Positions 3,001 through 9,000 of a stretch of DNA of 15,767 nt are shown here, in pieces. Origin of the DNA: a virus (lineage: Duplodnaviria; Heunggongvirae; Uroviricota; Caudoviricetes); IMG/VR virus record IMGVR_UViG_2700989171_000012. The stretch is one strand, 5' to 3'. Position numbers: made by a program. The first letter of the stretch is position 1. Every line of letters begins with the position of its first letter.

Positions 3001-6000
3001 GGGGGGGTTATGCGTGATGATCGTTTTAATTCCCTGAAACAGGAATTTTCCGGCGTTCCTGATGATGCGGCTGATGCGCTTTCGTCAATGCCAGAACTTA
3101 TTAGAGCGGCTTTTTTCTTACTTTCCACGAGAGAATATAAATCAACGGGCTTGATGTACTGAATATCGCCGCCGATTATGCTGATTTCGTGACAGAGGTT
3201 ATTTTAAGAAAAACGACGGACGGGGATTAATATGCGTGATATTTACCACGAAACAATAGACCGCGCATTTCTTGCACTTTCTCACAGTGAAAACATGCTG
3301 GAAATATTGCGCATATGGCTTGAAACACTTGGCGACAATGAACGCGACAAACAAAAATCAAGAATTGCCACGGCATTAATAACGCTTCTTGAGCCTGTAA
3401 TAATGGAACTGCAAGAAATAGATCTATTGCACGACAGATATAAAGAACAACACACCGGAGAATAAAAATAATGAAACTTAAATATTCTGGCTTAACTGCC
3501 AGTGGCAACACTCACCCTAAATTTACGCGCGGTGATATTTACCGCGACCAGTACGGCGGCATGGTAACGATTAAAGGCGTGGCAGAACGGCGCATCACCT
3601 ACCGCCGTGAAGGTTACGAATATGATTGCGTGATGCCTGTTTATCAATTCCGGCGTGATTTCACGCTGGTACAGGCAGCGCCCCGCAGTAAACCAACCAG
3701 CAGGGAGAAAGCACGCGCCAATATTCAGGAAATAAAAAAGATGCTTAACGTATTCAGGGGTAAAAAATGAAACTGGCACCGAACGTAAAAAAACAGCCAC
3801 GCGGAATAAAACACAAAGACACAGAGGTAATTATCTTTGCGGGTAGTGATGCCTGGTCGCACGCGAAACAATGGCAGGAGCAGGATGGCCCCGCATCCGG
3901 CGATAATGTGCCGCCTGTGTGGCTTGGGCCAAATCAGCTTGCCGAACTTGATGCACTGAAAATTGTTCCGGATGGAAAAAAACGCGTAAGGCTGTACCAG
4001 GCCGGAGAACTGGATTTGGTGGAGACCAAAAAGATTGGTCAGAAGCTGGCGGCGGCAGATATTCAGGACGCAAATTTTTACCCCGAAGGAATGCACGTCC
4101 AGAAGTGTGAAAACTGGCGGCGCTATCTGAATGCTGAGCGTGAAAATATTGCCGCAGGGCTTACCATGCCGGAGCAGAAAAATACGCAACTGGCACAAAT
4201 GGCAGACAGTGAGCGCGCGCAGCTGCTTGCCGAGCGCTTTGATGGCGTTTGTGTGCATCAGGAAAGTGAAATCGTTCACGTATGGCGCGGCGGGGGATGG
4301 TGTCCGGTCAGCACAATGGAACTTAGCCGCGAAATGGTGGTGATCTATTCAGAGCACAGGGCCACTTTCAGCAAGCGCGTAATCAATAACGCCGTGGAAG
4401 CGTTAAAAGTTATTGCCGAACCAATGGGCGAGCCGTCCGGCGATTTGCTGCCGTTCGCCAATGGTGCGCTTGACCTGAAAACGGGGGAATTTTCCCCGCA
4501 CACGCCGGAGAACTGGATCACCACGCACAACGGCATTGAGTACACGCCACCAGCACCAGGGGAGAACATCCGCGATAACGCGCTAAACTTTCATAAATGG
4601 CTTGAGCACGCAGCCGGAAAAGACCAGCGCAAGATGATGCGTATATGTGCCGCGCTGTACATGATTATGGCGAACCGGTACGACTGGCAGATGTTTATTG
4701 AGGCCACCGGAGACGGCGGGAGCGGTAAAAGTACATTCACACACATAGCCAGCCTTCTGGCAGGGAAACAGAACACGGTAAGCGCTGAAATGACATCGCT
4801 TGATGATGCTGGTGGACGTGCGCAGGTTGTCGGGAGTCGTCTTATCGTCCTGGCTGACCAGCCGAAATATACAGGCGAAGGAACGGGCATCAAGAAAATC
4901 ACGGGCGGTGACCCCGTGGAAATTAACCCGAAATACGAAAAGCGTTTCACGGCTGTAATCAGGGCGGTGGTGCTGGCGACCAACAATAACCCGATGATAT
5001 TCACCGAACGGGCCGGAGGTGTGGCACGTCGTCGCGTGATTTTCCGTTTCGACAATATCGTTAGTGAGGCCGAAAAAGACAGGGAGCTACCGGAAAAGAT
5101 TGCGGCTGAAATCCCTGTCATTATCCGCCGATTGCTGGCGAACTTTACCGACTCTGAGAAAGCACGGGCTTTACTACTGGAACAGCGTGACGGTGATGAA
5201 GCTCTGGCAATAAAGCAACAGACGGATCCGGTTATTGAGTTTTGCCAGTTCCTGAATTTTCTGGAGGAAGCACGCGGCCTGATGATGGGCGGCGGTGGCG
5301 ATTCAGTGAAGTACACGACCAGAAACAGCCTTTACCGCGTCTATCTGGCGTTTATGGCGTACGCAGGCAGGAGCAAACCGCTAAACGTAAATGACTTTGG
5401 CAAGGCTATGAAGCCAGCCGCGAAAGTTTACGGACATGAATATATTACGCGGAAAGTTAAGGGAGTAACGCAGACTAACGCAATAACAACAGACGAGTGC
5501 GACGCGTTTTTATAATTTTTTGTAATTGCTGTCTACCCTGTCTACCTGAGTAAAGAAAAATACATTTAATTCAGTGCATTAAGTTAGGTAGATAGCCTTT
5601 TTTTACTGTCTACCCACTATCTACCCTCTCTACCTGATTTTACCTGAATCAGACAGGGAGGTAGACACGGGGTAGATAGTGGATAAAAGCACTCTACCCC
5701 GCTGAAAGCAGCGCCATTACTGGCATGAGGGCCACTAAGGTAGATAAGGTAGACAAGGGGAGGCACAACTCAAAACTTTTTAAACGAGGGGGTAAAAATA
5801 AATATGCACACTTCAGGGAAATTTAATAAATCATTCAAAAAACGCAGAGACAGAACAGAACCGAAATATCGCGCGTTAGACATGACAGAGCACGCTTTAA
5901 AGGTGGCAATCAGAACGATAGACCGCCACGCGGGGGAAGGATACGCGAAAGCACATCCCGAACTGATAAGCGCATTCATGACCACGACGGCGGCAAATTT

Positions 6001-9000
6001 TGCCACGCTGACAGAGCGGGAGATTGCCGAAGCGGAACAGGTAACAACAATCAACGTTAAAACCGGAGAGGTGGAATCATGAGCGAACCAAAATTTGGTG
6101 AAAAATTTTACAAGCACAACGGACGGATCACGATTCTGCAAATAAGCGCAGCTACACCAGGCTGGTGGGTTGAAACAGACGAAGGATCCTCACCCGTGGC
6201 ATCATGGGAGCTTTGTGTGCTTAGTTACCCTGACCGCGATGTGTATCAGGATATTCTGCCTGTGATATCCACTGACAAAGGCATGAAACCCGTAGACATC
6301 AAAAACATGGGGTTTCAGTGCGTAATGCTCACTGAAAAAATGATGGAAGAGATGAAAAAGAACAATGCCGGATCGCTTCACTGAGGTGGCAATATGACAG
6401 CACAAATTGCAGCTTACGGGCAGCTGGTGGGCGACCCGCTGGTAAAACAGAGCAGCAAGGGCACACCGGAGCCGCCAACGGAGAACTACGCAGACCTGAG
6501 AAATGCAGTAAATCGCACTTACGCAGACATGGGGCTGAGCAAATTAGCAGAGTAGGAATATCAGAACCACACCACGCAGCCGGAGCAATCCGGCTTTTTG
6601 TTATTTTTTGTAAATTATTTGTTCGTGGTTGTTCCACGTTGTTCACTGAGCGGATCGGCATATTTTACCCGAACTGAATCATGATTATTCTCGCCCGTGG
6701 TGCCAGGACGCTGGGGCCACTTTCCCGCCTGTTAATGTGCTCGCCAATATTCATTACCAGGCGGGAAAACGATCGGTGCGATTACTGATTTCCTTATGAA
6801 AAACGGTTGAGTGTTTGCCGCGTCCTGGAGTTCCTTACTTAACCCCAGGACTTTTTTTATGCAGAGAATAATCGAATTACGCCAGCAGAAAACCGCCATT
6901 AAAAATCAGATGCGCGACATGCTGGAGAACGCTGAAAAAGAAAACCGCAGTCTTAACGATGCTGAGGGCGCAAAATTTGACGAATTACGCGCTAAAGCTG
7001 AATCCCTCGATAAAGACATTTCCCGCCTTGAAGCCATTGCAGACGAAGAGCGCAGCAAGCCAGGTAAAAGCAGCCAGACCACTGACCCCGCAGAACTACG
7101 TAACTACATTCTGACCGGTGAAACCCGCGCATTAAGTACAGGCGTTCCCGCTGATGGTGGTTATACCGTTATCCCTGAACTGAACACCGAAATCATGCGA
7201 ATGCTGGCGGATGAATCCACCATGCGTCGCATCTGTACCGTGAAGAAAATCAGCAGCAACGAGTTTAAGCAGCTTGTTTCCGCTGGCGGTGCGACCGTTA
7301 ACCACGGTGAAGAGGGTAAGGCACGCGAACAGACCAGCACCCCGCAGATTAACGAGGTGAGCATTAAGCTGTATCCGGTCTATGCGTACCCGCGCACCAC
7401 ACAGGAAATCGTGGATTTTTCCGATGTGGACATCCTTTCATGGCTGACGGGTGAGATTGGCGACACCTTCACGGAAACCGAAGAAAGCGATCTGGTTGTG
7501 GGCGACGGTGACAAAAAAGCAAAAGGTTTTTTATCCGTACCCCGTGCAGAGAAGAACGACAAAGAGCGTGATTTTGGTACGTTGCAGGTAATTAAACCTT
7601 CCGAATCTCTGGCGTGGACATCTGCGGACCCGCTGATCGACCTGAAATTTGCATTACGTAAAAAATACCGCAAAAACGCGGTCTGAGTGGTTAACTCCAC
7701 GACGGCGGCAAAACTTCAGAAGGTGAAGAACGCGAACGGTGATTATATCTGGCGCGACCGTTTACAGGCGGGTGATCCTGATACGTTGCTGGGCCTTCCG
7801 GTCGAATATCTGGAGTTTATGCCTGATAACGTTATTGCCCTGGGTGACTTCAAACGCGGTTACTACATTGTTGATCACGAAACAGGTGTTCGCACCAGAC
7901 CGGACAACCTGACAGAACCAGGATTCATCAAAATTTTCACGCAAAAATATTTAGGCGGTGGCGTGGTGGATTCGAACGCGATCAAGATTCTGGCACTGCC
8001 GGAAGACGACGATTAACAGCATACAGAAGGGGCTAAAAAGCCCCTTTAGTGTTTTATGGGTGAAAAAATTATGAAGAGTATGGAAATCCGGTCATCGGAA
8101 ATCACCACCAGCGGAGCCGGTACGCTGACGGGCTACGTTGTTCGCTGGGATAAGCTTTCAGAACTGTTATGGGGTGAGTTTTACGAAAAATTCCAGCGGG
8201 GGGCGTTTACTGAATGGCTTGCGGCGGGTAATGACGTTCGCGGCCTGTATGAGCATGACCACAGCATGTTACTGGGGCGCACCCGTTCCGGCACGCTGAA
8301 ACTGGAAGAGGACGAAACAGGGTTACGCTTTGAACTGACCCCACCGGATACCAGTACAGGGCGCGACGTTATCGAACTGGTTAAGCGTGGGGACATCTCG
8401 GGGATGAGCTTTGGCTTTCGCTCCCGTAAGGATGTATGGGATACCACAACAGATCCATGCGTGCGCACCGTGCTGGTGGCGGAACTGTACGAAATTACCG
8501 TTACATCGGTACCGGCTTACCCCGATTCCGGCGTGGAGCTGGCCCGCCGTTCCCTGTATGAGCAGCACCCCGAAAAAATGCCGCGTGCGGATAATCGCCG
8601 CTGGTGGGCGGATTTAGCGGGGGTGTGATATGTGGCCTTTCAGACGAAAAAAAGAGCAGCGCAGCATGACGCTTGATGAATTTATGGCGCTGGCCGGCAC
8701 ATCGAACACGGGGGCGGGTGAGTACGTATCATCTGGGACAGCGGAATCACTCCCCGCCGTCATGAACGCCGTCACGGTCATCTCTGACGCGGTGGCTACC
8801 ATGCCGTGTTACCTGTACCTGGTACGCAATGAGAAGGGGAAGGAGGCCCGCGAATGGCTTGATTCTCATCCGGTCGATCACATCCTCAACGAGCGCCCGA
8901 ACGCGTGGCAGACACCCTACCAGTTTAAGCGAATGATGATCCGCTACTGCCTGTTAAGTGGTAATGCTTATGCGGTTATTCAGTGGGGGCGTGATGGTTT

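Follow-up and report, generated by a model that had tools for sequence, protein, structure and literature searches.

A probable accessory gene array behind the replication origin of a decaying capsid-forming PICI, with two satellite-specific genes and an ssb-perC deletion scar

The DNA analysed here, a stretch of 15,767 nucleotides to which we refer in full as the window, is similar to cf-PICI-like islands of E. coli and Shigella and shares 99.97% identity with Shigella flexneri SFBU1023; its runs of N indicate a draft or masked assembly. Pfam detects int, AlpA, DUF4222, D5_N/DUF5906, capsid, protease, portal, HNH and TerL domains, and together with the annotation of near-identical islands these give int, alpA, pri/rep and the element's own capsid, protease, portal, connector, HNH, TerS and TerL genes, with no tail genes between terL and phoQ in the window. 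This is the gene set of a capsid-forming PICI (cf-PICI), a phage satellite, here situated between roxA and phoQ, which confirms the satellite context proposed in a first-pass annotation of this DNA. The order int, alpA, DUF4222, primase/helicase, origin and HK97-type capsid through TerS/TerL, all on one strand, follows the prototype EcCIEDL933, and many E. coli cf-PICIs have capsid modules 97-99% identical to the one here. The copy in the window is, however, defective: the major capsid gene carries a nonsense codon (W276*, TGG to TGA at 7684-7686), terS is truncated at its 5′ end and lacks its start, and a deletion has joined ssb to perC (see below). With a stop in the capsid gene and a startless terS, the island would not be expected to act as a helper-induced element with small capsids of its own, and its sequence points to a degenerate, decaying cf-PICI copy.

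Directly 3′ of the primase/helicase gene (D5_N/DUF5906, 3767-5515), an iteron-type replication origin (5523-5760, assigned to no strand) combines AT-rich stretches with nine copies of YTVTCTACC in both orientations (all within 5529-5756; 0.25 expected by chance, and nine reached in 0 of 200 shuffles). Three closely spaced plus-strand ORFs of 92, 101 and 53 aa follow (ORF1, 5804-6082; ORF2, 6079-6384; ORF3, 6394-6555), of which the first two overlap by 4 bp (ATGA) and the last two are 9 nt apart. Each is preceded by a Shine-Dalgarno-like sequence, namely GAGGGGG 11 nt upstream of ORF1, GGAGAGGTGG upstream of ORF2 and GAGGTGG (6383-6389) before ORF3. Beginning 22 nt past the ORF3 stop, a predicted intrinsic terminator on the plus strand (6578-6610) marks the operon end: the hairpin AGCCGGA-GCAA-TCCGGCT (6578-6595), with a 7-bp stem including five G-C pairs and a GCAA loop, runs directly into the tail TTTTTGTTATTTTTT (T5GTTAT6), and a 57-nt stretch spanning it folds at -14.8 kcal/mol (z = -3.45). 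A G+C-rich stem, an immediate U tract and a position after a stop codon all fit a rho-independent terminator. The capsid/protease/portal module lies downstream. In ORF sizes and spacing, in the Shine-Dalgarno-like sequences, in the placement between origin and head module and in the strong terminator, the first-pass annotation therefore stands. A consensus scan found no plus-strand promoter or terminator in 5400-5800, so read-through transcription is most likely: transcripts of the AlpA-dependent early/replication operon would continue over the origin into the array, its translation would be coupled by the ATGA overlap and the short spacers, and the transcript would end at the hairpin.

ORF1 gives a full-length match to the PHROG family phrog_1231 (E = 2.9e-51; residues 12-92 against positions 3-83 of 83) and begins with a basic, variable N-terminal arm, followed by a helical core that is conserved (residues 24-88) and by the C-terminal tail AEQVTTINVKTGEVES; the DNA coding for this tail also contains the start junction of the following gene and its Shine-Dalgarno sequence. 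Searches for homologues returned 166 and 444 clusters from Escherichia, Shigella and Citrobacter, and 1303 of 5426 complete E. coli genomes (24%) carry the gene. Its usual immediate downstream partner is the satellite ssb, to which it is usually translationally coupled; this neighbourhood tentatively suggests a small helical, basic-armed protein that might take part, jointly with the satellite SSB, in replication or the handling of ssDNA. The adjacency of ORF1 and ssb could also reflect inherited linkage instead of functional coupling. SSB occurs without ORF1 in two loci (L033, L043).

ORF2, a small Trp-rich protein, matches phrog_27268 from end to end (E = 5.1e-69; residues 1-101 against positions 1-104 of 104). 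It is present in 81 of the 5426 complete E. coli genomes (1.5%), and an exhaustive search of 1.84 billion proteins returned seven representatives. The motifs GWW, SP.A.W..C, LP and G.P are invariant in relatives at 25-34% identity, which are always the first post-origin gene in satellites of Morganella, Providencia, Photorhabdus and Xenorhabdus. Among the 43 related loci fetched via ORF2-family matches, the family gene is without exception first or second after a 246-484-bp gap 3′ of the initiator; the same position holds in the window, across four initiator types and whichever packaging strategy, and each of four diverged loci has its own, different iterons in this gap. Some of these loci have an ORF2-like gene and no SSB (L004-L007, L042). 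From this neighbourhood one might cautiously suppose that the binding partner of ORF2 is neither the initiator nor the origin but something that stays constant when the initiator varies, for example a factor of the host or of the helper phage. A broader speculation is that the ORF2-like family, perhaps with ORF1, forms an uncharacterised class of satellite-specific effectors directed at a constant host or helper-phage target, which could recruit or protect a replisome, counter a defence system or sense the helper; we consider this rather improbable. Its basis is that the family is independent of initiator, iteron sequence and packaging strategy and is absent from phages.

For both genes, the profile searches proposed in the first-pass annotation, alongside structure prediction, did yield matches, although only to PHROG families of "unknown function". 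The AlphaFold2 model of ORF1, a two-helix hairpin, and the model of ORF2 are poor (pLDDT 61 and 43, respectively), neither protein gave a fold or profile match that would assign a function, and neither matched Pfam, NCBIfam or PADLOC. No homologue of either was found in 50,697 phage genomes. The dN/dS values are 0.21 for ORF1 and 0.28 for ORF2; in both, third-codon positions are the most variable, and the other frames contain stops. ORF1 and ORF2 are real, independently inherited, satellite-specific genes under purifying selection. In the window itself, all of the family motifs of ORF2 (GWW, SP[VI]A[AS]WA[LI]C, ILP, GM.P) are present apart from the Ala of "WALC", which is replaced by Glu (A44E, GCG to GAG), a change confined to the window lineage (the window and S. 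flexneri SFBU1023, L008), position 44 being Ala in 16 of 16 other aligned family members. Since this lesion comes on top of the capsid nonsense codon and the terS truncation, selection has probably ceased to act on the post-origin module in this particular island.

The three ORFs had been described as having no recognisable domain. This does not hold for ORF3, whose residues 21-49 match the PerC family (PF06069; model positions 50-77 of 90, E = 1.1e-4, 22.9 bits against a cutoff of 22.6) and which starts with the 25 N-terminal residues of the satellite SSB. The GAGGTGG in front of it is the native ssb Shine-Dalgarno sequence, and 6394-6468 (plus strand) comprises the start codon and codons 1-25 of ssb, with 3-5 mismatches in the first 70 nt relative to the intact ssb of L013, L014, L023 and L025. 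The remainder, 6464-6555 (plus strand), corresponds to codons 54/55-82 of a PerC-family gene, of which the intact homologue in L002 matches PF06069 over positions 1-77 with 122 bits. The two parts meet in frame at a 5-bp microhomology, CACCG (6464-6468), and BLAST accordingly breaks there: window 5828-6466 corresponds to L002 3001-3647, and window 6464-6599 to L002 4153-4288. ORF3 is not a gene but the in-frame scar of a microhomology-mediated deletion of ~505 bp, which joined SSB residues 1-25 to PerC residues 55-82 and removed the SSB OB fold (the ssDNA-binding domain) together with the N-terminal two-thirds of PerC. Consistent with this, PGAP labels the same sequence in the near-identical island L001 as two pseudogene fragments. 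The Pfam SSB model (PF00436) finds no match in ORF3, whose alignment to the 136-aa SSB of relatives is confined to residues 1-25; the ~100-aa OB-fold domain and the acidic C-terminal tip (DGIPF) are missing, as is the full-length PerC domain of ~80-90 aa with its N-terminal two-thirds. Whereas relatives carry intact 82-aa PerC homologues at this position, ORF3 is a fragment and no regulator. In this family, EPEC PerC and EHEC PchA-C activate LEE1, while PchD, PchE and PICI-encoded homologues do not (PMC11773190, PMC6265319). The suggestion that regulatory functions sit here thus applies to the ancestral state alone, in which a PerC-family regulator was present along with ssb, both now destroyed in the window.

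Intact relatives share the order ORF1, optionally ORF2, ssb, perC, a terminator and, optionally, a 74-aa gene with a further terminator. ORF2 is a cassette inserted exactly at the ORF1/ssb junction, where the motif GAGGTGG-AAT-ATGA repeats: L044 shares the primase but goes from ORF1 straight to ssb and perC, with no ORF2 and with an identical junction sequence. Elsewhere the order is ORF2-like, ORF1, ssb (L032), or a fusion joins the ORF2-like gene to the tail of ORF1 (L034-L036). At the other end, two identical 23-bp terminator copies flank the 74-aa gene (phrog_1957) in relatives; the gene is absent from the window, of which 6577-6599 aligns twice to each of L001, L002 and L008, suggesting that the cassette was lost between its two terminator repeats. 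In view of the N runs in the window, this loss could in principle represent assembly collapse at the 23-bp repeats. The caveat is tempered by complete genomes in the same single-copy state, among them genomes with an intact perC (H36-H39). Taken together, we consider it quite probable that 5804-6610 is the post-origin accessory gene array of a degenerate cf-PICI, in which ORF1 and ORF2 are real genes, ORF3 is a scar and the 74-aa cassette has been lost. The first-pass annotation, whose own caution about calls resting on ORF and Shine-Dalgarno evidence was justified, had missed the scar, the sporadic nature of the ORF2 cassette and the degenerate state of the island.

Its call of three genes survives for ORF1 and ORF2 but not for ORF3, and the corresponding alternative, that three separate functional small genes include at least one with a role in helper-phage interference or in regulation of the island, seems unlikely to us. 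Some satellites do hold interference genes between their replication and packaging modules: SaPI operon 1, downstream of pri-rep-ori, encodes the capsid-remodelling cpmA/B, the interference genes ptiA/B/M and ppi, and occupies the same relative position, after the origin and before or within packaging functions. The restriction of ORF1 and ORF2 to satellites would suit such a role, and the independence of ORF2 from initiator type would fit a host or helper target. However, the array in question, composed of ssb, perC and two unknown genes, has no sequence or profile similarity to operon 1, ORF3 is demonstrably a deletion chimera, and ORF2, besides its rarity in E. coli, is dispensable in otherwise near-identical islands. 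In addition to the lack of PADLOC, Pfam and NCBIfam matches, EcCIEDL933, the only characterised cf-PICI, does not block reproduction of its helper phage (Alqurainy et al., bioRxiv 10.1101/2022.09.08.507074; the post-origin small genes are not discussed in that paper), so that helper interference is left unsupported.

Alternatively, the product of ORF3 might be a new micro-protein with a function, for instance that of a dominant-negative PerC tail, which was kept because the reading frame continues across the fusion; the ssb Shine-Dalgarno sequence is preserved as well. This junction recurs in L001, L008 and L021 and, as a single aligned piece, in three complete genomes, and L015 contains a second, independent in-frame ssb′-′perC fusion. 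Yet one deletion in three would preserve the frame by chance, and three of 5426 genomes is rare. Moreover, just 28 C-terminal PerC residues are left, the part matched by PHROG "transcriptional activator" families (~residues 1-52 of the intact protein) is gone, and all three differences in ORF3 between the window and L001 (R10Q, D13G, Q16L) are non-synonymous, consistent with drift. We therefore regard a functional ORF3 product as highly improbable. Marginally less credible still is a toxin-antitoxin or abortive-infection pair formed by ORF1 and ORF2 to stabilise the island: two genes of ~90-100 aa with a 4-bp overlap are a typical type II layout, but such a pair would be expected to co-occur obligately and to match known families, whereas ORF1 stands alone before ssb in most genomes, L003-L012 and L033-L043 have an ORF2-like gene on its own, L032 has the two in reverse order, and no PADLOC or Pfam toxin or antitoxin family is matched. 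Finally, that ORF1 and ORF2 are open in non-coding DNA beside the origin by mere chance, as the missing Pfam domains, the poor structure models and long antisense ORFs on the minus strand (5770-6141 and 6329-6661) might suggest, is refuted by their codon-level conservation, their full-length PHROG matches and the invariant motifs and shared genomic position of the distant ORF2 relatives, and has a negligible probability.

The present value of the accessory-array reading lies mainly in annotation and in generating hypotheses. It corrects a gene call, ORF3 being a pseudogene scar and the island a decaying cf-PICI. More generally, the little-studied post-origin region of enterobacterial PICIs emerges as a cassette array of ORF1, ORF2-like, ssb, proQ, perC and 74-aa genes, in which cassettes come and go where short junction sequences repeat, at a Shine-Dalgarno/start motif or at a duplicated terminator. 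For phrog_1231 and phrog_27268, PHROG families that lack functional annotation, the positional rules and the restriction to satellites are new, and they nominate two satellite-specific protein families for experiments: ORF1, which roughly one in four complete E. coli genomes carries, and the ORF2-like proteins, found in several enterobacterial genera.

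The region 3′ of the origin is a modular cassette array closed by a conserved terminator, and two intact genes of this array show purifying selection across the family. The island around it has the architecture of the capsid-forming PICIs (cf-PICIs), the phage satellites of Alqurainy et al. (bioRxiv 10.1101/2022.09.08.507074). A tyrosine integrase (1-1230) opens the window, and Pfam identifies AlpA (1605-1793), DUF4222 (3471-3770), and a D5_N/DUF5906/Pox_D5 primase-helicase (3767-5515) on one side of the array and an HK97-type capsid protein (6859-8016), an S78 prohead protease (8056-8628), a portal protein (8630-9841), an HNH endonuclease (10526-10966), and TerL (11554-13215) on the other; the window ends inside phoQ (14307-15767, minus strand). 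Its megablast matches are cf-PICI-like islands between roxA and phoQ in Escherichia coli, and the corresponding sequence of Shigella flexneri SFBU1023 (CP182556; locus L008) is 99.97% identical. Between the primase gene and ORF1 lies a gap of 288 bp in which YTVTCTACC occurs nine times, counting both orientations, where chance would give 0.25; judging from its sequence, this gap is an iteron-type origin. Rfam and tRNA scans over the window returned no RNA features, and a 248-aa ORF located 3′ of alpA (1851-2597) has no Pfam match. In the literature we found neither a link between PICIs and DUF4222 nor a description of ORF1, ORF2, or ORF3. Two records deposited as small non-mobilizable plasmids also carry cf-PICI sequence, NZ_CP070523.1 (Morganella morganii, 24.7 kb) and CP088587.1 (E. 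coli, 32.6 kb; locus L044), the latter together with chromosomal pntB and mdtJ; they reflect either faulty assembly or excision in circular form.

The first-pass annotation had described three coupled small genes with good Shine-Dalgarno sequences, and the three ORFs are indeed arranged in this way on the plus strand: ORF1 (5804-6082, 92 aa) and ORF2 (6079-6384, 101 aa) overlap in ATGA, ORF3 (6394-6555, 53 aa) starts 9 nt past the ORF2 stop, and each is preceded by a purine-rich Shine-Dalgarno sequence. The description of all three as unknown genes lacking a recognizable domain holds for ORF1 and ORF2 but not for ORF3, which from its sequence composition is a deletion scar and not a gene, its only Pfam match being the C terminus of PerC. 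In the related locus L002 (E. coli JNE132847, NZ_AP028094), the intact order 3′ of ORF2 is a 136-aa SSB (PF00436), an 82-aa PerC-family regulator (PF06069), a terminator, a 74-aa gene (phrog_1957), and a second terminator. The alignment between the window and L002 stops at L002 position 3647 and restarts at 4153, a deletion of ~505 bp, and ORF3 consists of SSB residues 1 to 25 joined to PerC residues 55 to 82. The two parts meet in a 5-bp microhomology, CACCG (6464-6468), between ...GGCACACCG followed by ATG in ssb and ...GGCCACCG followed by GAG in perC. In NZ_CP073589, PGAP calls the same sequence two partial pseudogenes, and the three differences between the window and the related locus L001 in ORF3 are all non-synonymous, consistent with drift. 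The deletion is recent, since of 5426 complete E. coli genomes only 3 align across the junction in one piece. Moreover, the ssb-perC region is deletion-prone, because locus L015 contains a different and independent in-frame ssb′-′perC fusion (6120-6380; SSB residues 1 to 12 and PerC from residue 31), which suggests recurrent ssb loss in such islands. By eye, parental ssb and perC in related sequences, as opposed to L015 itself, share CTGGTGGA at positions matching the L015 fusion, suggesting that it, too, may be a microhomology junction.

The strong terminator reported to close the three ORFs proved to be of the canonical intrinsic type (AGCCGGA-GCAA-TCCGGCT plus a T tract, 6578-6610). In L001, L002, and L008, the 74-aa gene, which itself has no Pfam match, stands between two copies of the 23-bp sequence CAGCCGGAGCAATCCGGCTTTTT; gene and bracketing terminator hairpins span L001 10062-10460, L002 4255-4650, and L008 7522-7861. 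The window has a single copy, a hybrid whose left flank is that of the first repeat and whose right flank is that of the second; the ~340-bp cassette is absent. Because the single-copy state is also seen in complete genomes with intact perC, we regard it as a natural polymorphism; given the runs of N in the window, a slight chance remains that the absence is an assembly artifact. A second hairpin, GTCCTGG...CCAGGAC (6822-6858), is followed by T7 directly 5′ of the capsid ATG at 6859 and is also kept in L001 and L002. Its 3′ arm holds the sole Shine-Dalgarno-like AGGA, the surrounding 63 nt (6800-6862) have a folding energy of −17.9 kcal/mol, and the hairpin could serve in attenuation or in translational control of the packaging operon.

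The profile and structure searches recommended in the first-pass annotation assigned ORF1 (over its full length, phrog_1231) and ORF2 (phrog_27268) to PHROG families but gave no match to either protein in Pfam, NCBIfam, or PADLOC and no fold match for ORF1. Conservation in related islands is evident for both, from homologues in many islands and from dN/dS. Homologues of ORF1 fill hundreds of clusters at 90% identity, whose members all come from Escherichia, Shigella, or Citrobacter, and none was found among 50,697 phage genomes; of 5426 complete E. coli genomes, 1303 carry ORF1, at up to 5 copies per genome. Its core (residues 24 to 88) is strongly conserved, the N-terminal arm is variable in sequence yet always basic, and dN/dS is 0.21. 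In most rows sampled, the ssb start falls in the last bases of ORF1. L044, which has the same primase type, encodes an ORF1 98.9% identical to that of the window and followed directly by ssb and perC, and GGAGAGGTGGAATCATGA forms both its ORF1/ssb junction and the ORF1/ORF2 junction of the window. Nucleotide diversity in 5804-6384 relative to 17 related loci falls along ORF1 from 18 variable sites per 30 nt at the 5′ end to 2 to 3 at the 3′ end and stays very low across ORF2 (mean dS of 0.03 versus 0.23 in the ORF1 core); this steep drop places a mosaic recombination boundary at or within the 5′ part of ORF1. The AlphaFold2 model of ORF1 is a two-helix hairpin of low confidence (pLDDT 61.5), for which Foldseek returned 0 hits in the PDB. 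The best PDB profile match, to the TFIIB cyclin-repeat helix-turn-helix with "TEREIAEAEQVTTINVK" opposite "TQREVAEVARVTEVTVRN", is not significant (E = 0.95), and AlphaFold2 places a continuous helix, then coil, at this site; we rejected the likeness and keep the alignment only as a lead.

ORF2, in contrast to this, is close to being an orphan: searching 1.84 billion representatives exhaustively with HMMER yielded 7 hits, and the E. coli type occurs in 81 of 5426 genomes, every time at ≥95% identity. Distant members of the ORF2-like family share 25 to 34% identity with the window protein (17-member alignment) and the invariant motifs GWW, SP.A.W..C, LP, and G.P. In all 43 related loci, which were fetched via ORF2-family matches, the ORF2-like gene is the first, or the second after ORF1, past a 246- to 484-bp gap 3′ of the initiator. 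The initiators comprise D5_N primases, RepA-like helicases, DUF927 primases, and Toprim/D5 primases, the gaps carry differing iterons, the capsid module is present in some elements and absent in others, and the hosts include Morganella, Providencia, Photorhabdus, and Xenorhabdus. The gene that follows also varies (ssb, proQ, perC, or a 65-aa gene), and in L032 (5864-6508) the order is ORF2-like, ORF1, ssb. In three loci (L034 6442-6792, L035 6224-6574, and L036 6977-7327), the C terminus of the ORF2-like protein is the ORF1 tail, AEQVTTINVKTGE..., another in-frame deletion product. The ORF1-tail DNA, with the Shine-Dalgarno sequence and start of the next gene, behaves as a reusable cassette junction. 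No ORF2-like homologue was found among 50,697 phage genomes, and the few hits in plasmid collections are wrongly assigned pieces of chromosome or circles the size of an island. Structure prediction for ORF2, from 4 near-identical sequences, gave an unusable model (pLDDT 43). In a PDB profile search, the family matched TAL-effector chains (E = 1e-22), an artifact to which ~20 repeats each add a weak "LPVL..G[LM].P" match; every single repeat has an individual E of >100, and none passes. ToxS, the sole weak Pfam match (E = 0.021, 1 of 17 members), was dismissed.

The island itself is a decaying satellite. A TGG codon of its relatives is TGA at 7684-7686 of the major capsid gene (W276*), so the island cannot make its own capsid. 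In terS (P27-family small terminase, ~11170-11230), a 90-bp deletion between two CCCCGCC repeats (compare L001 14984-15073) removes the intergenic sequence together with ~9 codons at the start of the gene, the ATG among them. In ORF2, residue 44 is Glu (GCG to GAG), where 16 of 16 other aligned family members have Ala; this change is shared only with S. flexneri SFBU1023, which has the capsid stop and the terS deletion as well. Despite the 99.97% identity, the integrase is split in SFBU1023 (L008 902-2152) and intact in the window. Shigella genomes are known for pseudogene accumulation. Runs of N at 10353-10435 (83 bases, head-completion region) and 11230-11280 (51 bases, terS region) indicate that the assembly behind the window was gapped or masked, which makes ORF calls that span them unreliable.

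How might the two intact genes work? Helper interference, raised in the first-pass annotation, is unsupported; EcCIEDL933, the characterized cf-PICI prototype, does not block its helper (bioRxiv 10.1101/2022.09.08.507074). A toxin-antitoxin pair can be set aside, as ORF1 and ORF2 each occur independently. Covariation of ORF1 with the initiator was rejected, in view of islands of differing initiators that regain similarity at ORF1 codon ~9 and of the same ORF2 (97 to 99% identical) alongside four initiator types. The gene neighborhood suggests that ORF1, being coupled to ssb almost universally and having a basic arm, probably works with the satellite SSB, and that ORF2, being independent of initiator and iteron, probably binds a partner that stays the same whatever the initiator type. 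Since our scan of the stretch from the primase gene to ORF1 gave no plus-strand promoter or terminator, the array would be transcribed by read-through from the AlpA-dependent early operon, and its translation would be coupled from gene to gene. Taken together, the first-pass observation is partly confirmed and its interpretation partly supported, and the main yield is a corrected annotation together with an outline of this satellite region's organization.
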